From an uncultured virus (IMG/VR IMGVR_UViG_3300047554_000670) (taxonomy: Duplodnaviria; Heunggongvirae; Uroviricota; Caudoviricetes), in the IMG/VR virus record IMGVR_UViG_3300047554_000670: 64,000 nt of DNA. One strand, 5' to 3'. Position numbers and translations under genes: made by a program. The notes below the pieces were generated by a model, which was given only the letters and a program-made list of their open reading frames with translations, did not search any database and had not been told where the DNA came from. Shown piece after piece: positions 464 to 58,722 of the stretch. Each line of letters begins with the position of its first letter. Positions within the stretch are counted from its first letter, which is position 1.

Positions 464-1156
464 TTACGCATAAGTAAATAATTTCTCACTAGCTTTCTTA
501 TACTTACCCTCTTTCTTATTTACCCAAGTGTCAATTTCTCTTTCGTAAATACAGGTAAAATCATCGGGTGCTTCATATTCACTAACGAAGACTTTACAGG
601 GTAGGTTTCTACACCAATCCCAGAACTCATCATGATTAAACTTAGCTATCTTACTGTATTGAGTTGTGTTCTTATAAGGTGGGTCACAATACACAATTGC
701 ATTGGAAGGAATAACTAAATCTTTATAATCACAACAAATTAAATCACTTCCTTGTAGTAAAGGAGATTGTTTAACCGCACTATTATATGCTTCGGTAACG
801 TAATCTCTATTGGATTTATTCCTAGCCCATCCCCCTAAAAACTTAGCACCATAACTATAAGTAAATGAAGCAAAACCCTTATGAGGATAAGCATCACTAT
901 GTCTAAGCTTTCTATAGTCTTCCTCAGTAAACTCTAAGTTATTCTTAGGAAGTTCATTAACATAATCTCTTATAGAGATAAGAGCTTGGATTGTATAAGG
1001 ATTAGCATCAGAACCAAGTCTAGGATTAGCTACTTGACTAAATACATTAGCCCCTCCTACAAATGGTTCTACCCATACATCATCAGGTTGTCTATAAGCT
1101 AGCATTAGTGGAACTATGTCCTTAACTAATCTAGACTTACTTCCCATATATTTCAT
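464..1156 (-). CDS. DNA adenine methyltransferase (D12/Dam-like)
   Basis: N-terminal KYMGSK, EPFVGG SAM-binding motif, YCDPPY catalytic motif. Confidence 0.9.
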   Translation of the reverse strand: MKYMGSKSRLVKDIVPLMLAYRQPDDVWVEPFVGGANVFSQVANPRLGSDANPYTIQALISIRDYVNELPKNNLEFTEEDYRKLRHSDAYPHKGFASFTYSYGAKFLGGWARNKSNRDYVTEAYNSAVKQSPLLQGSDLICCDYKDLVIPSNAIVYCDPPYKNTTQYSKIAKFNHDEFWDWCRNLPCKVFVSEYEAPDDFTCIYEREIDTWVNKKEGKYKKASEKLFTYA

Positions 1157-1164
1157 ACCTGATA

Positions 1165-1999
1165 CTAGTCTTTATAATTTCTAATAATCACATCATTAAC
1201 CTTAACTCTACTCTCTTTAGTAGCACCAACACAACGAAAGGAAGATAAGTCAATAATCTCATAATCTCTATATAGTTCTCGTATTAAATCAGTTCCTGAG
1301 TTAGTCATTAACCATTTAGCTTTATTTAGACTATGGTTTATCCAATTAAATAATTGAACTTGATCAAATACAGAATCATTCCAGTAAGAGTTAAAGGTTT
1401 GGTCATAAGGAGGGTCTAGGTAGAAGAAGCTACTACTAAGGTCAAACTCTGTATCTACTTGACTATAGCTTGTATTTGTTATTACTAAGTCTACGGAGTT
1501 TAGATAATTATGAATTTTTACTAAGTTATTTACTATAGGGTCAATGTTAGGGGATTGTTTACCGTAAGGAACATTAAACTTACCTTGTTTATTAAATCTA
1601 CAGAGACCGTTATAACCAAAGTTTAAGAGATAAATAAATCTAGCAGATTGTTCTGCTAACTTAGGAAATATATTCTCTTCTAGAGAATTATCCATACTTA
1701 TTAAAGATATCTCTCTGTTTATAATATTCTTCCTCTGTATTAGATAAAAGAAAGAGACAATCTAACTCATATAGCATTATATGAAGTAGTTCTTTATTCC
1801 TTAAGCATCTCCACAGTAGGTTAACAAAAGAGTTAATGTCATTGAGATAGATATGGTTTGTTGGTTTATATGCAAGAAGTAAACTACCCATGCCTACAAA
1901 GGGTTCATAATAGTTTGTAGGCATAGTAGAAGGGAAGTACCTAATAATGTTGGTAGCTTCCCTTGATTTACCTCCTGTCCATTTACAGGGGGCTTTCAT
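1165..1999 (-). pseudogene. dam: Dam-family adenine methyltransferase split by a frameshift near 1690
   Basis: N-terminal half (1688-1999) has KWTGGK and EPFVGMG; C-terminal half (1165-1695) has YNGLCRFNKQGKFNVPYG and YLDPPY. The two ORFs overlap by 8 nt. Confidence 0.8.
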
Positions 2000-9628: not shown

Positions 9629-12600
9629 TTAAAACTTAATTTCACAGAAGTCACTATCACATCCACTAGGGCCACTAAAGGAGTCCTTAGCTGAATCATA
9701 TTTAGCAACTAACTTGTAGAAATCAATCGATGTATCAATTTTATTCATACGCCGCTCATATTCTTCTTTCGTACACTTCTCATAGGGTAGACGAGGGAAT
9801 GTATCTCCCATACGAGAAAGTAGGGCTGTAGAAATATAGGGTTTGTTGTTATGAATATCAGCGTAGATTTGAGCCGCTAGAGTTTCAACCTCATTCTCCT
9901 TAAGCAAAATCGTACTCGACGTATTATGAGTCGTATAGTAGGTCTGACATTGCATCCAGAACTTATATTGAGCTAATGCACTAACTTCACTACCATCAAA
10001 CCAATCAGGAACTGTGTCTACATGAATTGGAATTTCTACGAGCCAAGTCTTAACACGAGGGTCAAATGGGTCGTTAAGAAGAACACCATTCTCATCGGTA
10101 TCAGTTTGTCCAGGTACTACTTCATAACCAAAGTCATAACATGCTTTAGCTACAGCCGTTGCAGGGTCCATCGTAATACGACGGATATAGTAAGCAGCTT
10201 TAGGGGGTTCCCAGCTATTAGTGTATCCAGTAAGAAGAGTTTGAGAACCTTCAGGCTTTAACCCACTATAACGATTAGGGCGCTTTAGACCTTGTTCATC
10301 ACAATAATCAAATACACCATCTCGTACAGCTAATTTCCAATAGGTAAGGATAATACGTTCATAAGTAGTGAACATCCAACCCAAATCTAGACCCCAACTC
10401 TTATTAGATAAGAAGGAGTCAATTGTATCAAAAATATTAAAGCTTACATCATTTTTAAGTAGCTCTTTAACTTCTGGTTTACTAGACAGAATAGTCTTAA
10501 CTACAGAGGTGACGAAAGAAATTCGCTCATGTTCTTCCTCACTAAAATCATAATGTTCTTGAACCCACTCATCAGGTCTTCCATACAATTCTGGAGGACA
10601 TGTAATATCGTCTGATTCGTATCCAGAAGGCGCAGCAAGCCACCATTCACACCACTTAGGTCCGAATAGCCATGAGAAGAATTCAAAGCCCTCTGTGAAG
10701 CTTGCAAGGACAATAGGGTCAATCTCTCGTGAGTAGGCAAATTTCTCATCAGGAAATTTATGCTTAAGCAATGGGGTCATAATCAAAGCAGAAGCATAGA
10801 AAGCCTTATACATTAGAGGTGCTAAGTCACTAGCATTAAGTTTGTTAACAATAAATTCTCTAATAAGAGGGCGTAAGTGGGTAGAAGATAAGTTGCACAT
10901 GAAGTCACTACCTTCTACTTCACCACAGTTGCCCACTAACAAACCCGCATGAATACTGAATCTGTTGGTCCCTTCTACAGTACAACAATAGACTTCAGGA
11001 GCATTACTGTTAAAAGAAATCTGTTTAACTTGGTTTGTCTTATTCTTAAAGCTATTAAGAGTAGCTTTGTCTCCTAAGTCCTTAAGCCGTTCAAAAGTAC
11101 ACAATTGACCAAGCTTAATGGAATCTTTTTGACTTAGACTAATCCGATAAGTATCTTTACAGTTACACAAACCTCCTCTTTCAGGACCAAAATCCTTAAC
11201 ACCTCCTTTACGAGCAGGCCCAATCTTAGAATTAATTCCTAGAGTACGGAGGAGTAAGACTAGACCCTCTAAGAATGGACGAGAGATACTTGTAAGTTGA
11301 TAACGGAAACCACTATTGCTATCTTGAGCAGTTCCATCAGCATCAAACAAACCTGCAATAAAATTAGCTTTACTTTCGTTGTCCCAGTTAAGAACTTCGT
11401 AAGGGAATTCATGCTTATACTTGTAACACCAAGGATTAAGGTCTTCTTCTACAGCAGTTAGGCTTTTCAGACGATCTGAAGGTGTAAGTCCAACTTCATA
11501 ACTACCTGTACGGCCATTCATTTCACGTTGGGAGGCAAATAGCCGGTCAAGACAGACCATCTTTGGTGCATAGATTTTACACATGGCACCTTTTCCATTT
11601 GAACTAGTACCATCACCAATAAGGAAACCTTTAAGGTAAGCTCCTTTAGCTTTAATAGTACCTTCTACAGGAGGAATATCTGTGGTCATTAACTCATCAC
11701 CAACTTCCAAGTCTTTAAGTTGTTTTTCAGTACCATCAACAAGAATAAACTTATGGTATGCGGTTGCTGTGATAATAGACCCATCATGAAGTTCTACATC
11801 ATAAACATCTTGGTCGGTAGCTGTAACACGGAAGTTATCTACTTTACGCCATTCTGTACCATCATAAACTTCAACTTCCTTACCTACGAGAGTTTCAATA
11901 GGGAAGTAGCCCTCACGAGTCATTACAATAGTACCGGGAGCAAAACAAGGGTTAAGCTGATATCTACTGACTCTATGGGTTAACTCTCGTTCATCAATTT
12001 CCTTACCAAACTTATCCTTATATGCTGTACTAAATAGTTCTTCAAAACTAATTTGATTATCTACAGCTTCGTTAACTTTAACAATTGCATCTTCATTTTC
12101 AAACAAATCAACATTTGCTCGTGCTAAAGCTACGGGTACGTACTGAATAGCTCCTTCACCACAAATAAATTGTGTACGAACTGCATTCTCTACTTCTTCT
12201 AGTGTAGGTTTATGAAAATACAACTTAGTAAAGTTAGAGAACTTGAGTGATTTCTTCTCTTCATCAGCTACCCAAGTCCCATCATCAAGCTGAGTCCACA
12301 GATTCATCTTGGCATCAGCCGTAGGGTCATCAAAGTCAAACTGTTCAATCTTTGCACTTCGTCGCTGTCCTCCCGCTACAGCCCATGCTGCAAACTCATT
12401 ATTAATAAGAGCACAATCTAAAGTATTGATTTGTTGGGATTCAGTAAGTGCTACACGGTTAAGAATATTAGTTAGTCGTGTAAAGAACTCTTCCGTATAT
12501 ACAGGATTAGCAATTCCACCAAATCCTTTACAGGGAGTACCGTAAGGACGAATAGAACTTAGACATACATGGATGGTGTACCCATTAAGAAGAGCCTCTT

Positions 12601-13246
12601 GTAATTTTTCTTTCGTTACATTCGTAAGTAAAGGGATACCAAGTTTATCTTTATCCTCTAAAAAGTATGCTCCATTTGTGTAAAGCTCAAACAATGCATT
12701 AGTTGCACTTGCCCAACCTTCTCTACTATCACCAACTTCAATAGTGATTAAGGATTGGTCTTCACTTAGATATAACTTAGTGTGTTCAGTGTAGGAAGGG
12801 TTATCAAATCCGTATTCACCAAAATAACCTGTAAATTCAAGATTAAATACATTTACTACTTTAGAAAGCTTCTTAAGATTAACTTCTCGAATAACCTCAC
12901 CTTGTCCACAACCCAGAAATAGATTGTTAAAAGACCGAATAAAATCATAGAAACTAACAAACATAGTTCCTGAGCAGTTATAGAAAGCATAATAACCAAA
13001 CGGGTCATTCTCTTTATTACTACCGGCTGCCCACCAAACACGTCCACTAGTATTAGAAATTTCCTTATTAAAGAAATCAGATACAAGTTCTTCTTGTTCC
13101 TGTGTATACTCTCCCATACGAAGAGTGAAATCAAGTTGTCTTTTCTTTTGGTCTTGCTCTAGAAACTCCCATCGGTCCTCAATTCGTCGATAAGTACGAG
13201 CATTTACAGGATAACGAGTTAATGGATTAGAAAGATTAAAAGTCAT
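9629..13246 (-). CDS. nrdJ: Class II (AdoCbl-dependent) ribonucleotide reductase containing an intein
   Basis: YNCS, GDSREGW, VAGGQRRSA, NP/CGE active site, CNLS, KPEGS, HNTSSTI and C-terminal GCDSDFC. Confidence 0.93.
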   Translation of the reverse strand: MTFNLSNPLTRYPVNARTYRRIEDRWEFLEQDQKKRQLDFTLRMGEYTQEQEELVSDFFNKEISNTSGRVWWAAGSNKENDPFGYYAFYNCSGTMFVSFYDFIRSFNNLFLGCGQGEVIREVNLKKLSKVVNVFNLEFTGYFGEYGFDNPSYTEHTKLYLSEDQSLITIEVGDSREGWASATNALFELYTNGAYFLEDKDKLGIPLLTNVTKEKLQEALLNGYTIHVCLSSIRPYGTPCKGFGGIANPVYTEEFFTRLTNILNRVALTESQQINTLDCALINNEFAAWAVAGGQRRSAKIEQFDFDDPTADAKMNLWTQLDDGTWVADEEKKSLKFSNFTKLYFHKPTLEEVENAVRTQFICGEGAIQYVPVALARANVDLFENEDAIVKVNEAVDNQISFEELFSTAYKDKFGKEIDERELTHRVSRYQLNPCFAPGTIVMTREGYFPIETLVGKEVEVYDGTEWRKVDNFRVTATDQDVYDVELHDGSIITATAYHKFILVDGTEKQLKDLEVGDELMTTDIPPVEGTIKAKGAYLKGFLIGDGTSSNGKGAMCKIYAPKMVCLDRLFASQREMNGRTGSYEVGLTPSDRLKSLTAVEEDLNPWCYKYKHEFPYEVLNWDNESKANFIAGLFDADGTAQDSNSGFRYQLTSISRPFLEGLVLLLRTLGINSKIGPARKGGVKDFGPERGGLCNCKDTYRISLSQKDSIKLGQLCTFERLKDLGDKATLNSFKNKTNQVKQISFNSNAPEVYCCTVEGTNRFSIHAGLLVGNCGEVEGSDFMCNLSSTHLRPLIREFIVNKLNASDLAPLMYKAFYASALIMTPLLKHKFPDEKFAYSREIDPIVLASFTEGFEFFSWLFGPKWCEWWLAAPSGYESDDITCPPELYGRPDEWVQEHYDFSEEEHERISFVTSVVKTILSSKPEVKELLKNDVSFNIFDTIDSFLSNKSWGLDLGWMFTTYERIILTYWKLAVRDGVFDYCDEQGLKRPNRYSGLKPEGSQTLLTGYTNSWEPPKAAYYIRRITMDPATAVAKACYDFGYEVVPGQTDTDENGVLLNDPFDPRVKTWLVEIPIHVDTVPDWFDGSEVSALAQYKFWMQCQTYYTTHNTSSTILLKENEVETLAAQIYADIHNNKPYISTALLSRMGDTFPRLPYEKCTKEEYERRMNKIDTSIDFYKLVAKYDSAKDSFSGPSGCDSDFCEIKF
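10928..11947 (-). mobile_element. Intein (340 aa) with LAGLIDADG homing endonuclease in nrdJ
   Basis: Begins CFAPGT after NP and ends LLVGN before CGEV; LAGLIDADG motifs YLKGFLIGDG and FIAGLFDADG. Confidence 0.93.
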
Positions 13247-16383: not shown

Positions 16384-17721
16384 TTATCCCTCGGTTTCTT
16401 CAATGTCAATAATATCTTTATCCTTATTCCCTTGTTCCATCATACGAAAGGGAAAAGATTTGTTCTTGTAAATATCATACAGAGTTCCATTCCGTTCTAC
16501 TCGGATACAGACACCTTCTCGATAACATGTATTAAAAGTAGAAGGTTGTTCTGTTAGCAGTTCAATGAAACCCGATAAGTTCATAATATTCAAATCCTCT
16601 GAGGTGAACCTGTGTAGCATAGGCACAGTAATTACCTCAACTTTAGGATTATTTAGAACTTGAGCAATCTTATTCACTCTGTAGGTAATGTAGTCCCAAG
16701 GGTAAGTAAATTTAGTTCCTGTCTCTGTAATAAGGGTCCAGTTATAAATTGCTACCAATAGGGGGGATTCTGGTGTACGCCCATAACACCAGTTCATACT
16801 GTCACCCCATTGTTCAGCAAACTCCTTATCTACTGCCTTAGGGGACATATCATGTTGAATCTTACCCCCATCCAACTTATACCCTAGAATCTCATAATAA
16901 ACGGATTCTCCTTTCTTGATAAAAGGAGCAAGAACATCACTTACAAGATAACGATAAGAATCACGTCCAGAATAACCAAATTGGAGTGTTTGTCGTGTAC
17001 CTGTAACTAGTTGATACTCATTTGTATCAATCTTAATTTTCAGATATTTCTCAAGTAGATTCATCCACCAAGTTTTCTTTCGTTCTACCTGTACATACCC
17101 TGTACGACCCGATGTACCATGTAGCTTCTCTGTAACATAGAAAGTACAATTCTTTTTGTGCTTAAGTGCCTCTACTTCATATCGGAACTTCTTAGTCTCT
17201 AAGTGCATAGGAAGCTGAGTTAGCTCTTTCTTATTAGAAAGAATCTTTCTTCCTTGAAATGCCCCTAGGAGATACCCGGTAGATGAGAAATGAGATATAT
17301 GTAGCCTTTCACTAGGTACAACATACTTGTAACAAATCTCATGCCCGTTAAGACTTGTAAACGTATACCCCTCTCGAAATGCGCCTAGAGGATATCCCGT
17401 ATAGGTGAAATGAGATAAAGGTAACCAGAATCCTTCAGAACGTTGACCTCGAAAAGTTTGAGCTTTAACACGTCGCTGCTTAGGATCAATAAAACCTCCT
17501 CCAGTCTTTTTTCCATTCTCATCATATATGGGATATAGGTTGTTGGCCGTACAGAACTCATCCGTCAATGCACCATCAGAAGGAAAGAATACCCCTAACT
17601 GTTGGTCTTTAATATCAAGACCAATCACAACTTGACTACCCTGAGCCATCCCTAACTGAATCTTATCCGCATTAGGATGAGGGTAGGTCTTAATTCGACA
17701 AACAATAGCTTCATAGCTCAT
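16384..17721 (-). CDS. RNA ligase (DRB0094/Rnl2-like)
   Basis: HPNADKIQL N-terminal domain, TEKLHGTS motif I, EGVCIR and YKNKS. Confidence 0.88.
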   Translation of the reverse strand: MSYEAIVCRIKTYPHPNADKIQLGMAQGSQVVIGLDIKDQQLGVFFPSDGALTDEFCTANNLYPIYDENGKKTGGGFIDPKQRRVKAQTFRGQRSEGFWLPLSHFTYTGYPLGAFREGYTFTSLNGHEICYKYVVPSERLHISHFSSTGYLLGAFQGRKILSNKKELTQLPMHLETKKFRYEVEALKHKKNCTFYVTEKLHGTSGRTGYVQVERKKTWWMNLLEKYLKIKIDTNEYQLVTGTRQTLQFGYSGRDSYRYLVSDVLAPFIKKGESVYYEILGYKLDGGKIQHDMSPKAVDKEFAEQWGDSMNWCYGRTPESPLLVAIYNWTLITETGTKFTYPWDYITYRVNKIAQVLNNPKVEVITVPMLHRFTSEDLNIMNLSGFIELLTEQPSTFNTCYREGVCIRVERNGTLYDIYKNKSFPFRMMEQGNKDKDIIDIEETEG

Positions 17722-22736: not shown

Positions 22737-23552
22737 CTAAAGATTAAACCACTCTACACAAACATCTTTGTAAGGCTGAGGATTACACATCAATAGGCTA
22801 CCGTTGGACAAATATTCGTGACATCGCTTTTCATGTGTATGTCCATGAATAACAACTTTAGGATAAAAGTTATTACTAATGTGATTAACAAAATAGCAGT
22901 TAAGTCTTTCACCTTTATATTTATCTGATACAGCAAAAGAGAAAGGAATATGATGTGTAAAGAGAATTACATCTTGTGTATTATCTCTTAAGCTTAAGAT
23001 GTTATTAATTTGTTGTGTTCCTAAGTTTAAGAAATCATTAACAGTACAGTCTTTAATATGTCTAAAATCATTAAGGTTATCTTGTAATAGATAACAGTCA
23101 GGATTATATAGAGTGTAACTTCCATCTTCTTTAGGGCTAAATCTATTATCCGTACCCCCGTACCATAAGGTATCACCTAACACTAGGTATTGTTCAGGTA
23201 ATAAAGGATGATACTCAGCCCGGTCTACAGTTAACAAGTATTGTCGAGTAGACTCAACTCGTACATATTTACTTCCTAACTCCTTAAACACAGAACTAAT
23301 TACCTTATTCCCTTCACTTAAGGTTGTTCCATAGTATTCATGATTACCAGGGACATAGAATACTTGATTAAAGTTAGACAACGAAAGAAAGAAGTCTTTA
23401 TACCAAGGAGCTGTTACAGGACATACATCCCCTGCTACAAAAATAGCTTTACCGCTAAGAGACCTTAGGTATTCAAGAACCTCATTAACATTATCTTCAG
23501 TTCTATATTCAAGGTGAATATCACTGATTACTGCTACATTGTTATTACTCAC
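22737..23552 (-). CDS. Calcineurin-like metallophosphoesterase
   Basis: SDIHLE, AGD, GNHE, THH and HGHTH motifs. Confidence 0.92.
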   Translation of the reverse strand: MSNNNVAVISDIHLEYRTEDNVNEVLEYLRSLSGKAIFVAGDVCPVTAPWYKDFFLSLSNFNQVFYVPGNHEYYGTTLSEGNKVISSVFKELGSKYVRVESTRQYLLTVDRAEYHPLLPEQYLVLGDTLWYGGTDNRFSPKEDGSYTLYNPDCYLLQDNLNDFRHIKDCTVNDFLNLGTQQINNILSLRDNTQDVILFTHHIPFSFAVSDKYKGERLNCYFVNHISNNFYPKVVIHGHTHEKRCHEYLSNGSLLMCNPQPYKDVCVEWFNL

Positions 23553-43727: not shown

Positions 43728-44372
43728 CATCCCACATCATATTACTATGACCTCTTTCGAGTTGTAGGCTGGACTATTTCTTCACCATTTCAGGTGAGCC
43801 GCGTATAGTCTCTACGGTTCCTGTTGTAAGACAGTTACCTCGGAGTTGCCCTTGTATCTTTTGAAAATAGCAAGGATGTTCTCCGATATGGCGGCTTCCA
43901 CTATTTGAGTTTCTCTTCCGAGTTGGATTTTTCTTGAAAGTTTTCCTCTACACTTTGCCGAACAAGTAGTAAACCTGCCCCCTTTTTGTAAGAAAGTATC
44001 TCTAATTTCTTTACAAAATTCAACACCACATTCAGGGCATTTTAAGTGACAGTATTTCCTACCTATCTCTTTTCCATGTAGCAGTTGATGCTGTTTTGCG
44101 GTCATAACTTCCAAGTTTTCAACCCTGTTGTCCTTTCTATCATGATTGATATGATGAACAACCTCATCAGAGTTAAGAAGTCTACCAAGATGATTCTCCA
44201 TAACTACTCTGTGTTCTAAAATATACCCTAGCTTATTAGCTTTTGGGTGTCCTTTTACCACAGCATAGTTATAGTCACCTTTACTTACAATCTTCTCAAC
44301 CTTCCAACAAATAGGCTCCATTTGTTCACCTTATAAACTAAGTTAATTATAGCTTACTTAGGTGTTTTTGCA
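43728..44372 (-). mobile_element. Group I intron (645 nt) in the tRNA-Arg anticodon
   Basis: 5' exon ends in U and intron ends in G; core elements CCGTAGAGACTATA (R) and AAGAAATAGTCC (S) form P7. Confidence 0.9.
43812..44321 (-). CDS. Intron-encoded HNH homing endonuclease
   Basis: EHRVVME...VVHHINHDRKDNRVENL HNH motif plus CPEC...CSAKC zinc finger. Confidence 0.9.
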   Translation of the reverse strand: MEPICWKVEKIVSKGDYNYAVVKGHPKANKLGYILEHRVVMENHLGRLLNSDEVVHHINHDRKDNRVENLEVMTAKQHQLLHGKEIGRKYCHLKCPECGVEFCKEIRDTFLQKGGRFTTCSAKCRGKLSRKIQLGRETQIVEAAISENILAIFKRYKGNSEVTVLQQEP

Positions 44373-44783
44373 AAGGCGATTGCTCTATCCACTGAGCTAC
44401 CAGGGCATATACACCTGATTTTCACAGGTGTTGCTGTTAATTATACAGCATTTTAATACAAATTGTTCACTCCTAGCAAGATAGTCCAAACAACCCAGAA
44501 GAGAGACCACGAGTAATTCTCACGGTCAAAGTCAATTAAGGCATTAAAGAGAGAACAAGTTATACCCAGATAAGTCCAAAAAGATAAGTCCATCATTAGC
44601 GTAATCCAACGAAAATAAGTTGTAGTTGAATAACTATGGCCATAGAACAGAAAAAAATCTGTGCATGAATATTCTTTTTATAGGTACTGTCACAGGCCAT
44701 AAATACAGCATAAACAAAAGATAGTTGGCGAACTAGTTGTCCAATCGAAGCAAGATCCAACATAAGACAATCCAAATGACAGC

Positions 44784-44825
44784 AAAAAGAAGAACTAGGG
44801 TAACCCTTATGAGCTACCCCAGTTC
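44784..44825 (-). terminator. Terminator ending the tmRNA coding piece
   Basis: GAACTGGGGTAGCTC-ATAA-GGGTTACCCTAGTTC followed by TTCTTTTT. Confidence 0.85.
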
Positions 44826-44995
44826 AATGATTATGCTACAGCAAGAGAGGTCTTACGAGCAAAAGGTTTGATTTGATTCGCATTTACACGATTTTGTCCT
44901 TCTTCACCTATGTAGTATATACATAGGGTCGGTCCTGGACTCTAGACCGGGTACAGTATTTCACTTCATTAACAAATCGATACCAGGACACCCCC
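44790..44995 (-). ncRNA. ssrA: Two-piece tmRNA, coding piece
   Basis: 5' GGGGGTG-TCCTGGTATCGA, P2 strand TTTGTTAAT, pk1 CGGTCT/GGACCG with GTCC/GGAC; resume context TAAAT-GCG; tag ANQIKPFARKTSLAVA-stop at 44881-44831. Confidence 0.9.
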
Positions 44996-44999
44996 AAGG

Positions 45000-45092
45000 T
45001 AGGGCAGGAGGGACTCGAACCCACAACCGCGCACTAATCTGGTGCATACAGAAGGTATAAGCTTCTCGCTCTACCAATTGAGCTACTGCCCC
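45000..45092 (-). tRNA. tRNA-Ile(TAT) with long variable arm, nested in the tmRNA intervening segment
   Basis: GGGGCAG/CTGCCCT acceptor, AGAAG-CT-TAT-AC-CTTCT anticodon arm, V-arm GCAC-CAGATTA-GTGC, A73. Confidence 0.88.
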
Positions 45093-45160
45093 TGGTGGAG
45101 GTGAGCGGAGTTGAACCGCTGTCTTTGCTAACTCCATTAATACTTTTTAGTACCATATCG
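45093..45160 (-). ncRNA. ssrA: Two-piece tmRNA, acceptor piece (5' boundary approximate)
   Basis: GGTAC..AGTATT..GTTAGCAAA-GAC-AGCGG-TTCAACT-CCGCT-CACCTCC-A-CCA; pairs with GGGGGTG, giving the G3:U70 Ala determinant. Confidence 0.9.
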
Positions 45161-45196
45161 TAAATATAAGTATACAAGACTGTGTACTTATACCCA

Positions 45197-45248
45197 ACAA
45201 CTTTATATTACTTTACTACTGGACAACTTTATATTACTTTACTATTGG
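45197..45248 (+). repeat. Tandem 26-nt direct repeat upstream of the tmRNA
   Basis: ACAACTTTATATTACTTTACTA(C/T)TGG x2. Confidence 0.8.
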
Positions 45249-47290
45249 GTCAAATAGCAATCTTCTAAGATAATCATATGGTTCAGGTTCCTTTCCATAT
45301 ATTTCTTTCGTTGTTTCATAATACTCCTTAAAATATGTCCAATAGAACAAATCAGTCTCACCCTCAAGTAAGTAATTGTCTAGACATTCTCCATCAGAAA
45401 GAAATGTTAACGGAGTATACCCTTCACACTCTTCATCTATATACTCTATACAATTCCCTTCTTCTTTCATCCAGTACATTACGACTTCAGAAAATCTTAT
45501 ACTAGTTATTCCCCCTTCACTTGTAATATACGCTATTTCATCTCCTGGTTTAGGGAATTCATCTTGTAAAGACTTAAAAGTTATAGTTATCATATACAGC
45601 TAAGGTTAGGGTTATCATAAGAGGTCTTCTTTAGTAATAACATCATTACTTTTAACAAAGGTTAGACCTAAAGCTTCTAGACCTACTTCTGTTAAGTCTT
45701 GCTCATCATCCATGGATAATTCAAAGTAGTAATGTGACATTTTGTATTTAATCCCCTTCCAGTGTTTACATTTCTTACCTTGTTGTGCCTTAGACATAAC
45801 ATCTAGTAGAGTGCATAGTCCTCTACCAAATCGTTCATTCTTAATCTTTACCCAGTGTCTGCAACTTCCGCATTCACGTTTAGGCTTGTTTCTCATTAAG
45901 AATACACACTTTACTTGATAAGTTGAGCTAACGCGCTTGTAAGTACCTCATTAACAATTAGTTGACCAAAGTGATTAGGGCTAGTTGCTACATCAGCTAG
46001 AGATAGAAACAAAGTAAAGATTCCAAACTGGTTAACTATATTTTCGCAAGTCTCTTTAGTTAACCTTAAGTAACAAAGACCATCATCTTCGTAAATAGGA
46101 GTGAAGAGAAGTACCATATCGGGGTAGCAATGACCACTGGGGAGGCTTAAAGATGTCTCAGATAGCTTATTCATAGCTCCTACTAAGAGAGGCTCTACTT
46201 TATCTTGTGCATACTTAAGACACCAATCCATGAGCTTACTATTATCAACGTCTTCTGAGGAAAGAAAATTAGGAAGACTTGAGGTTAAAATATCTCTAAG
46301 TTGTTGTTCTATTTCATTAATCTCTTTTTGAATCTCACTTTCTGGCATTTCTATTAGTTCATTCATAGTTAGCCGTTTTGTCTCTAAAATCCAGCTAACA
46401 AGCTGTTTAGGGTCTAGAAAATCCGAATGTATCCCTATGTTAGTACGAATTAGATTCGCATGAGAAGAATCTAATTTATCTATAACGAAAGAAATATTTA
46501 GGTATTCGTCTTGAAGTAGTAAACCATTATCAATTGTATGGTCAGTTTCTACAAGTGCATTGGCTAACAACTTAAGACTAAGGCTAATTGCTTTATACAT
46601 TGAATTTGCTCCGTATATAGTTGATAGGTTGAGGCACTTTATCCATTAAGTGAAACCAAAAGTTAGGCGTAATGAAAAACCTGTCTCTAGATGCAGTGAA
46701 AGGTCCAAATTTCTTATCCGGGTTACTAAGATAAAACAGGTAGTTGGTTTTACACCAGAATCTAATATTAGCCCCAATCAAAGTATATATTTCAATAAAT
46801 ACTTTGTACTTAAGTTCGGTTCCATCCTCTGCATAAGATTTACGGTCTTGAATAGCGACACTAACCCAAGCAAGTCCTAGAAAATAGGTTCTGGTTAAAA
46901 TTCTTATCCCATATCCGTAATCATCGGTAATAAGCCAATGTTTAGTGTCAAAGTCTTCTGCTATGGGAAGAAAGGCTTCAAAACCATCATACTCATTATG
47001 CTCCATATCAGTTATCCTCATTCTGCCATCTAACTAGGTATTCACGAAGGGCATCACAAATTTCTATGTCACCTTCTTCTAAATGATCTTCAACCGCACT
47101 TATATTTATGACATAAGGACCATAATAATCTCTTAAGATATACCAAGGCATATCATCTTCATAAATCTCTAGTCTGAAATCAGGGTCTCTAAAATAAGGG
47201 CTTACATTCAAAGTAGTTGGATAAAAGTGAGTCCATTCTATTTCTAAACCTACACCAGGGGCTGTTCTTTCACACATCATATCAATATGC

Positions 47291-57447: not shown

Positions 57448-58722
57448 TCACCTATCCTGAACTTCCACCCCTAATGCTAACAATTTCTGATGTATGAGGT
57501 CAGCTTCAGCCCAGTTCTTAGCTTTACGAGCTAAGTTTCGAGCCGAAATAAGTTGTAGTACATGCGAACTAAGTGCCTCATCTTCAATTGCCATAGCTCT
57601 TAACCCTAATACATCTGCCAAAATCAACAGCGTAATGCTATTGCAAGGAGTTAAGTTCTTGGCTAACTCAAATAGAACTGCTAGAGCTTTGGCTGTATTA
57701 AGGTCACAGTCTAAAGCATCGTTGAATCGGGCAACAAAATAAAGGTCAAATTGACTATCTTCGGTTATATTCTCCTTAGCTTTAATCAAAGCTTTATTCA
57801 GAGATTTCCAACTATTTGATGCGGATTCAAGAGCCTCCGTGGTAAATGCTAAAGGTTTACGGTAGTGAGCTTGAAGCACAAATAACCGTAGTGCCATGGG
57901 AGAAATACCCTGGAGGTCTAGCAAGTCTCTGATAGAGGTAAAGTTCCCCTGAGACTTAGACATCTTATCCCCATTGAGGGTTACAAATCCATTGTGGAGC
58001 CAAAACTGAGATAACATATGTCCCGTAACAGCCTCAGACTGTGCAATCTCATTCTCATGATGAGGAAATACGAGGTCCGCACCTCCACAATGAATATCGA
58101 TACGGTCTCCTAAAGTATCTCGAATCATGGCGGAGCATTCAATATGCCATCCAGGTCTTCCTGGACCCCATTTAGAGGGCCAGTTAGGTTCTTCGGGTTT
58201 TGCGCTCTTCCAAAGAACGAAATCATTTTCTTTCGTTACCTCGATATTTCGTTTTGAAAGCTTACCATAGCCTTCAAACTTACTTATGTCAAAGTAAACC
58301 CCATCATCTTTAACTTCATAAGTGTATTCTTTCTGTTCTAGCTCATGAATTAGTCGTTTAATTCCATCAAGGGTATGAGTAACACGAGGGTAGGCATCAG
58401 CTTTCATAATGTTAAGCCTTTCCATATCCTCAAAATATGCTTGGATGTATTTCTCCGCTATGTCCTCCATAAGTACATTTTCTTGTTTGGCCCGGTTGAG
58501 AATCTTGTCATCTATATCAGTGAAGTTCTGTACATACTTCACCTTATAACCTAACCAAAGAAGATATCTGCGTAGGGTGTCCCAGACAATATAGGAGCGG
58601 GCATGGCCAAGATGACAATAATCATATACGGTTACACCACAGCAATATATACTAACTTGCTTTGGTGTAAGAGGTTGAAAGAGTTCTTCGCGACGTGTGA
58701 GGCTGTTGTAGAGGTATAACAT
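57448..58722 (-). CDS. cysS: Cysteinyl-tRNA synthetase
   Basis: CGVTVYDYCHLGHAR, NFTDIDDKI, GRPGWHIECSAM, DIHCGGADLVFPHHENE and KMSKS motifs. Confidence 0.97.
   Translation of the reverse strand: MLYLYNSLTRREELFQPLTPKQVSIYCCGVTVYDYCHLGHARSYIVWDTLRRYLLWLGYKVKYVQNFTDIDDKILNRAKQENVLMEDIAEKYIQAYFEDMERLNIMKADAYPRVTHTLDGIKRLIHELEQKEYTYEVKDDGVYFDISKFEGYGKLSKRNIEVTKENDFVLWKSAKPEEPNWPSKWGPGRPGWHIECSAMIRDTLGDRIDIHCGGADLVFPHHENEIAQSEAVTGHMLSQFWLHNGFVTLNGDKMSKSQGNFTSIRDLLDLQGISPMALRLFVLQAHYRKPLAFTTEALESASNSWKSLNKALIKAKENITEDSQFDLYFVARFNDALDCDLNTAKALAVLFELAKNLTPCNSITLLILADVLGLRAMAIEDEALSSHVLQLISARNLARKAKNWAEADLIHQKLLALGVEVQDR

Follow-up and report, generated by a model that had tools for sequence, protein, structure and literature searches.

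A complete tRNA-Ile nested in the intervening segment of a permuted phage tmRNA gene

Why would a gene for transfer-messenger RNA (tmRNA) hold a whole tRNA in the segment that parts its two pieces? Does this bind the two RNAs together in their maturation, or does one merely travel with the other? Both questions are raised by a composite gene on the minus strand of IMG/VR virus record IMGVR_UViG_3300047554_000670, a stretch of 64,000 nucleotides (hereafter the window, at its full length) that comes from a phage. In transcription order, the acceptor piece of a circularly permuted tmRNA is followed by a tRNA-Ile with the anticodon UAU and then by the tmRNA coding piece. The composite gene is real, and it is probably functional. 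We consider it probable that it yields a working two-piece tmRNA and a tRNA which are separated by RNase P, and that the tRNA is a captured, optional cargo and not an obligatory partner.

A first-pass annotation of the DNA had described an acceptor piece that ends in CACCTCC, A and CCA and is joined without a gap to the tRNA. Sequence, ARAGORN and Rfam agree on this description (Table 1). ARAGORN reports a permuted tmRNA at 44740-45185 and a tRNA-Ile (anticodon tat) at 44998-45092, both on the minus strand, and the covariance models, which had been suggested as a check along with ARAGORN, likewise call a permuted tmRNA and a tRNA. The Rfam model of permuted tmRNA (tmRNA_permuted, RF04321; curated cut-off 47 bits) matches positions 44831-45154 with 83.6 bits (E 1.6e-14) and does so end to end, over model positions 1-213 of 213, while the tRNA model (RF00005; cut-off 29 bits) matches 45000-45092 with 57.7 bits. 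The RF04321 alignment of the acceptor piece begins at 45154; the 5' end of this piece would lie near 45160. The tRNA accounts for 93 of the 97 bases of the intervening segment and lies wholly between the encoded CCA and the first base of the tmRNA, G1 (44995), on the same strand as both tmRNA pieces. On one side the CCA (45093) directly abuts G1 of the tRNA (45092); on the other, the tRNA discriminator A (45000) is followed by the spacer CCTT and by a coding piece that starts with GGGGGTG, as had been proposed. The elements of alanine identity can be read from the sequence: a G3:U70 pair in the acceptor stem, the discriminator A and the CCA end.

Table 1. Features of the composite gene and its surroundings (window positions).
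Feature	Position	Strand	Basis
tmRNA acceptor piece (P2 5' strands, T arm, 3' acceptor strand, discriminator, CCA)	45093..45160	minus	RF04321 model 1-63, ARAGORN, sequence, folds
T arm of tmRNA	45120-45104	minus	within acceptor piece
tmRNA 3' acceptor strand CACCTCC (RNA CACCUCC)	45103-45097	minus	read from sequence
tmRNA discriminator A	45096	minus	read from sequence
Encoded CCA of acceptor piece	45095-45093	minus	read from sequence
Complete tRNA-Ile (anticodon UAU at 45059-45057, 21-base variable arm)	45000..45092	minus	ARAGORN, RF00005, homology to stand-alone copies
Spacer CCTT (RNA CCUU) from tRNA discriminator to tmRNA base 1; predicted 3' trailer of the released tRNA	44996..44999	minus	sequence
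tmRNA coding piece (5' acceptor strand, P2 3' strands, hairpin with possible pk1, tag frame, terminator)	44786..44995	minus	RF04321 model 87-213, folds
tmRNA 5' acceptor strand GGGGGTG (RNA GGGGGUG)	44995-44989	minus	sequence
Extra hairpin in coding piece	about 44931-44911	minus	folds
Predicted tag frame (resume codon GCG 44881-44879, tag ANQIKPFARKTSLAVA, stop UAA 44833-44831)	44831..44881	minus	Rfam alignment, ARAGORN
Intrinsic terminator (15-pair hairpin 44825-44792, then U-run)	44783..44825	minus	terminator scan
Candidate sigma-70-like promoter TTGGGT-17-TATACT	45169..45197	minus	by eye; weak guess

Can the two tmRNA pieces pair with each other around the tRNA? In the minimum-energy cofold of the two pieces, an acceptor stem of 7 pairs and P2 helices of 9, 6 and 5 pairs are formed together with the T arm. 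The predicted fold of the 371-base precursor contains the same 7-pair acceptor stem and the same P2 helices, and the acceptor and D arms of the tRNA form in its middle. The acceptor stem with G3:U70 and the three P2 helices that the first-pass annotation had drawn are thus present in both predictions. The precursor fold has a z-score of -4.16, and none of 100 dinucleotide shuffles folds as well. For a possible pseudoknot pk1 upstream of the resume codon, a 4-base complementarity between a loop and downstream sequence was noted by eye in the cofold, the model used having no pseudoknot pairs.

The open tag frame and strong terminator that had been noticed are likewise in place: the frame runs from GCG to UAA, and a 15-pair hairpin followed by a run of T lies 3' of the stop codon. 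The consensus resume codon of the Rfam model aligns to GCG, and the tag predicted from there, ANQIKPFARKTSLAVA, closes with the hydrophobic, alanine-rich LAVA. ARAGORN proposes a longer tag in the same frame, with a start at 44905. We favour the shorter tag and infer its resume codon.

Is this arrangement conserved elsewhere? Four public runs (X3, X6, X8 and X9), all represented by DNA contigs, were compared with the window. In run X3, which belongs to a different study, a single contig of 1105 bases spans window positions 44600-45332 and covers every junction. It differs from the window by 27 substitutions and 32 gap letters. The listed differences form three clusters: one upstream of 45157, one at about 44915-44927 within the extra hairpin, and one in and after the terminator. 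None of them affects the tag frame or the interval from 44928 to 45157. The changes within the X3 terminator convert an A-U and a G.U pair to G-C, a change in run X6 converts G.U to A-U, and in both relatives 15 of 15 pairs are kept, so that the changes are compensatory within the predicted hairpin. A contig of 239 bases in run X8, a marine metagenome, extends 29 bases past the 5' end of the coding piece; this falls short of our 31-base bridging rule, and the contig was counted neither as a second bridge nor as evidence on habitat.

Upstream of the tmRNA, the promoter scan tool gave no call at the candidate promoter of Table 1. Its one promoter-like match, at 45253-45226, lies inside upstream repeats and was not relied on. 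Just upstream of the tmRNA, at about 45200-45246 on the minus strand, a 21-base direct repeat is present in two copies, the first of which overlaps the stop of an open reading frame (ORF) at 45234-45593; the X3 relative has many small deletions there.

Where does the nested tRNA come from? Its core (the D, anticodon, 21-base variable and T arms) is 96-97% identical to stand-alone tRNAs of SynMITS9220M01, a Synechococcus phage in which the copy is annotated as tRNA-Ile, and of DSL-LC02. Both are T4-like cyanomyoviruses, and a permuted tmRNA was absent from both when they were examined. The core is present in 37 other IMG/VR loci and 2 isolates, and ARAGORN placed none of the 37 inside a tmRNA. 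A long variable arm of 21 bases is unusual for an isoleucine tRNA. One stand-alone copy (L132) carries two compensatory changes in the variable-arm stem, and the arm is therefore a real structure. Judged by its sequence, the tRNA-Ile(UAU) belongs to a conserved cyanophage family. AUA makes up 157 of the 1029 isoleucine codons in the window ORFs, which gives such a tRNA a plausible job.

Does the nested copy differ from its free relatives? In a comparison with the 37 stand-alone copies, acceptor positions 5-7 are GUG/CAC in all 37 and CAG/CUG in the nested copy alone, that is, two acceptor pairs are flipped. Five stand-alone copies have the acceptor GGGGGUG/CACCCCU, whose 5' strand is identical to that of the window tmRNA. 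The flips lower the predicted pairing between the tRNA 5' strand and the tmRNA 3' strand from -10.4 to -4.7 kcal/mol, and they may reflect selection against cross-pairing within the precursor.

We then asked whether other tmRNAs carry tRNAs in the same place. Metagenome and viral contigs were scanned for a tmRNA 3' end and a tmRNA 5' end that lie, in this order, 72-102 bases apart. These scans for tRNA-sized spacers returned at least 239 loci, at least 159 of them permuted according to ARAGORN and 2 with a nested tRNA-Asn (L329 and L460). A further scan returned 111 loci, 17 permuted and 2 nested, of which one was a contig already found and the other was new (L629/G003). A tRNA-Asn (GUU) is thus nested in a tmRNA in three contigs among the matches listed (L329, L460/G002 and L629/G003). 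The survey of permuted tmRNA spacers that the first-pass annotation had called for did turn up further nested tRNAs, and the architecture of the window is accordingly not unique. [quoted passage not shown] At the junctions of these tmRNAs, one base separates the CCA from tRNA-Asn, and 3-4 bases lie between tRNA-Asn and GGGGATG. In the acceptor and anticodon stems of the tRNA-Asn, L329 departs from L460 by changes that are compensatory.

In the isolates S-SSM7, Sf-FS3 and S-CAM1, the tmRNA is unnested, with a 5-base spacer and no encoded CCA. The S-SSM7 tmRNA is 90% identical to a nested-Asn relative, S-SSM7 having its 5-base spacer where G002 has tRNA-Asn; an insertion at the tmRNA junction was found in none of 16 phage records with a cyanomyovirus-type tmRNA. 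Because close S-SSM7-like relatives exist with and without a nested tRNA, the tRNA is, as far as sequence comparison tells, optional cargo in that lineage.

To match the scan patterns, a locus must encode CCA and carry fixed letters in the acceptor; the scans are biased in this respect, and no frequency can be derived from them. A generic scan for tmRNA 3' ends gave at least 121 loci, 39 of them permuted and none nested among the matches listed, and a second such scan gave 69 loci, 10 permuted and none nested. A pattern specific to the window junction had no match in metagenome contigs. IMG/VR was also scanned for tRNAs abutting a tmRNA CCA; nearly all of the 39 loci are chance matches or tRNA-Ala arrays, and the permuted tmRNA that ARAGORN alone calls in L178, where it coincides in part with a tRNA array, is probably a false positive. 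Among species-representative genomes, the same scan returned 30 loci, none of them with a permuted tmRNA; the single match of interest was a standard tmRNA abutted by tRNA-Cys, described below.

Several other tmRNA genes came to light in the course of these scans. On a contig from a metagenome-assembled genome (MAG) of Acetothermia, a one-piece tmRNA (L230 639-1067, 150 bits) is directly abutted by a tRNA-Cys, and RNase P acting at this tRNA would therefore make the tmRNA 3' end. In three IMG/VR loci (L270, L297 and L285), a one-piece phage tmRNA belongs to a tRNA array, and 5-6 bases separate its CCA from the tRNA that follows. Six others (L249, L257, L264, L268, L283 and L296) contain elements of about 65-70 bases that resemble the tRNA-like domain of tmRNA alone: a 5' acceptor strand is joined by a short hairpin to a T arm and CCA, and there is no tag region. 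L257 is the only one of the six in which ARAGORN reports a tmRNA, a permuted one; its call in L283 is an unassigned tRNA. Finally, published cyanomyovirus genomes contain unannotated cyano-type two-piece tmRNAs with scores of 109-143 bits, among them those of S-SSM7 (L650 1179-1481), S-CAM1 (L652 1128-1396) and Sf-FS3 (L651 1121-1410). Several of these are overlapped by coding-sequence calls for a 'hypothetical protein'.

How would such a gene be expressed? Anatomy, conservation and recurrence in other phages were read directly from the data, and from these we infer each step of processing and function in the following proposal. A single transcript, starting at about 45160 and ending at the terminator at about 44786, would comprise the acceptor piece, tRNA-Ile(UAU), four bases and the coding piece. 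The tmRNA pieces would pair around the tRNA, which would fold on its own between them. Host RNase P would then cut twice, at both tRNA-like 5' ends, and release three RNAs: a cut at tRNA base 1 (45092) would make the encoded CCA the exact 3' end of the acceptor piece, and a cut at tmRNA base 1 (44995) would free the tRNA with a CCUU trailer, to be completed by host 3' enzymes and the CCA-adding enzyme. These cut positions, which the first-pass annotation had also deduced, fit both the anatomy and the maturation by RNase P and tRNase Z that PMC3985003, in the part concerned with permuted tmRNA precursors, presumes. The two-piece tmRNA would be charged with alanine, partner with host SmpB, rescue stalled ribosomes during infection and append the tag ANQIKPFARKTSLAVA, and the nested tRNA would read AUA codons. 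As to its history, the tRNA may stem from the tRNA pool of cyanophages and have been taken up into a spacer slot whose content is exchangeable, after which two of its acceptor pairs would have changed and its match to the tmRNA acceptor stem would have been lost.

A number of observations weigh against a working composite gene of this kind. Its conservation is supported by one diverged relative, that of run X3; the IMG/VR record G001 is 100% identical to the window over a 3324-base stretch around the composite gene and, being the same phage, adds no independent support. In run X9, a contig of 202 bases covers the acceptor piece and the tRNA (45000-45149), and unlike sequence resembling a ribosome-binding site and a start codon replaces the coding piece; this sequence was not found in the window, and the contig could be an inserted-gene variant, a relative without a coding piece, or a chimera. 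RNA runs contain at most 0.10 of the sampled window words, probably just the shared tRNA core. The candidate promoter is not conserved and has deletions inside it in the X3 relative. The flipped acceptor pairs come from a single nested lineage, and the sample in which an encoded CCA goes with nesting (3 of 3 nested forms versus 0 of 3 unnested phages) is small. The interaction energy between acceptor and coding piece, a weak test, has a z of -1.5 and is equalled by 24 of 300 mononucleotide shuffles; because of this, the covariance-model score is the main statistical support. No tmRNA subtype model scores above its cut-off, the best being beta_tmRNA with 49.4 against 84 (E up to 1). RF01851 (cut-off 70 bits) is not passed by the window tmRNA, which passes the general model alone, whereas the cyanomyovirus tmRNAs pass RF01851 at 109-143 bits. 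Lastly, SmpB was not found among the 94 window ORFs, in G001 or in G002, and host SmpB would therefore be needed for function.

Could the tRNA be more than cargo? The first-pass annotation held that the two RNAs mature interdependently, and in its strict form this means that the tRNA defines the 3' end of the acceptor piece and that neither RNA matures without the other. We regard such obligate co-maturation as unlikely, and the earlier wording as too strong. The abutment of CCA on tRNA base 1 with no spacer would suit it, yet exact abutment is not general, as the tRNA-Asn forms have one base after the CCA. The CCA is encoded in the nested tmRNAs and not in the three unnested cyanomyovirus tmRNAs, which suggests that the 3'-end pathway changed on capture, and the flipped acceptor pairs suggest co-adaptation; S-SSM7-like tmRNAs that are 90% identical nevertheless exist with and without a tRNA. 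The same tRNA-Ile, moreover, occurs stand-alone in 37 copies and would mature there as a gene of its own, and end formation by exonucleases or RNase Z is conceivable as well.

Alternatively, the tRNA may have landed in a phage tmRNA gene that is now dead or dying, the tRNA alone still being at work. The failure of every subtype model and the X9 contig, with no coding piece at the expected place, would both fit such decay, and the gene for an HNH endonuclease just downstream (43812-44321) marks the area as prone to invasion. Even so, the general model RF04321 matches end to end at 83.6 bits, and G3:U70, the discriminator A, CCA, the T loop, the open tag frame with its stop, and the terminator are all intact. 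The X3 relative, too, has no listed differences in the tmRNA core while its flanks carry many, and the terminator has undergone compensatory changes. We therefore judge a dead tmRNA to be quite improbable. That the composite exists in no genome and is an assembly chimera, in which the conserved tRNA core joined unrelated contigs, is very improbable indeed: the core is common to many cyanophages, has very high depth in the compared runs, and is where the X3, X6 and X8 contigs break, but the same composite stands in record G001, a 1105-base contig from a different study spans all junctions, the nested tRNA has an acceptor stem that occurs in the tmRNA context alone, and the tmRNA halves are complementary to each other across the tRNA.

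Which phage carries this gene? The first-pass annotation had made no mention of a phage as the carrier. The window has small genes, almost all of them on the same strand, and they encode a family-A DNA polymerase, a primase-helicase and a Sak4-like recombinase. The DNA polymerase shares 27% identity with its counterparts in Nodularia siphophages, and a search of IMG/VR with two flanking or core proteins returned no relatives of the phage. It is a poorly sampled lineage, unrelated to the T4-like cyanomyoviruses with two-piece tmRNA. Public runs that contain the stretch are mostly labelled freshwater metagenomes. Since the nested tRNA is of cyanophage type, the phage itself is probably a cyanophage.

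Some neighbouring and more distant genes of the window deserve mention. The HNH endonuclease gene, on the minus strand, lies about 470 bases downstream of the tmRNA terminator. Near 44602 and 44760, the sequences of the X6 and X9 relatives part from that of the window, which makes this region mosaic. A cysteinyl-tRNA synthetase is encoded at 57448-58722 (minus strand; PF01406, 408.8 bits), and the window ORFs are rich in TGT (251 TGT versus 53 TGC). An RNA ligase and a calcineurin-like phosphoesterase lie at 16384-17721 and 22737-23552 (minus strand); alongside the tmRNA, tRNAs and cysteinyl-tRNA synthetase in one phage, they may form a tRNA repair set. The ribonucleotide reductase gene (9629-13246, minus strand) is split by an intein that contains a homing endonuclease domain of the LAGLIDADG type. 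Three adjacent ORFs at 464-1999 (minus strand) each match parts of a D12-class adenine methyltransferase; they could represent a complete gene beside a split one, or else a duplicate that is broken.

How new is a tRNA nested in a permuted tmRNA? The first-pass annotation knew of no described case; the kind is, in fact, already in print, in one line. The 2025 tmRNA database paper (PMC11915505) devotes one sentence to a permuted tmRNA from the nominally archaeal MAG GCA-2688965 sp002688965.2 whose intervening sequence contains an intact tRNA-Ala, and calls this unique among 97,179 sequences. By that description, the likeness is close, a complete and high-scoring tRNA lying between the acceptor and coding pieces. 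The differences are that the described case concerns a tRNA-Ala in a nominally archaeal MAG, in a sentence that gives no analysis of junction or processing, whereas the window has tRNA-Ile(UAU) in a phage, with the CCA abutting the tRNA. Our literature searches on permuted and cyanophage tmRNA returned no further description of a nested tRNA. What is new is the exact abutment of CCA and tRNA, the flipped acceptor pairs, the occurrence of nesting in a second lineage, and its association with an encoded CCA.

In the Caulobacter tmRNA of Keiler, Shapiro and Williams (2000), the spacer is reportedly short and discarded; that of the window is, in contrast, a working-looking tRNA. Otherwise, the permuted order, two base-paired pieces and alanine identity pair are those of the Caulobacter type, as the passages citing it in PMC3985003, PMC3590771 and PMC9004378 present it. 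In the survey of PMC9004378, two-piece forms make up 53 of the 133 unique phage tmRNAs, and most of these come from phages of marine or aquatic origin. The T4-like cyanomyoviruses S-SSM7, S-SSM6a, S-CAM1, S-CAM3 and Sf-FS3 and marine virus AG-345-P14 resemble the window in having a phage-borne permuted tmRNA and probably a cyanobacterial host, and their tag core AANNIVAFSR is similar to the AN.I..F.R of the window. The three tRNA-Asn contigs share with the window the order of encoded CCA, whole tRNA, 3-4 bases and tmRNA base 1; they differ from it in the tRNA (Asn, GUU), the extra base after the CCA, the cyano-type tmRNA, its position in a tRNA array and the phage family. A precedent for the proposed 3'-end formation is the mitochondrial rnpB of Andalucia, whose 3' end is, in the account of PMC3590771, defined by an adjacent tRNA-Gly. 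There, too, an RNase P cut at a tRNA 5' end matures the 3' end of the upstream RNA, albeit of another RNA, in an organelle genome and, from what that account describes, with no nesting in a permuted gene.

What does the composite gene mean for phage tmRNAs? How the 3' end of the acceptor piece is formed in permuted tmRNA is poorly defined, the precursors being thought to be cut by tRNA-processing enzymes, and a gene with two predicted RNase P sites and three predicted products would be a clean natural test substrate. It is possible, though we hold this only tentatively, that the tmRNA spacer of aquatic phages is a general, RNase P-bounded slot that repeatedly captures tRNAs (Ile, Asn and Ala), that capture rewires the acceptor 3' end, and that the tRNA then co-evolves with its carrier, for which the flipped acceptor pairs would speak. 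If so, the trailer would be trimmed and CCA added before capture, and afterwards RNase P would expose an encoded CCA; both RNAs would mature as one unit, in fixed 1:1 amounts. Phage tmRNAs are left unannotated in published cyanophage genomes, and phages appear to use the tmRNA spacer for extra tRNAs at no added promoter cost.

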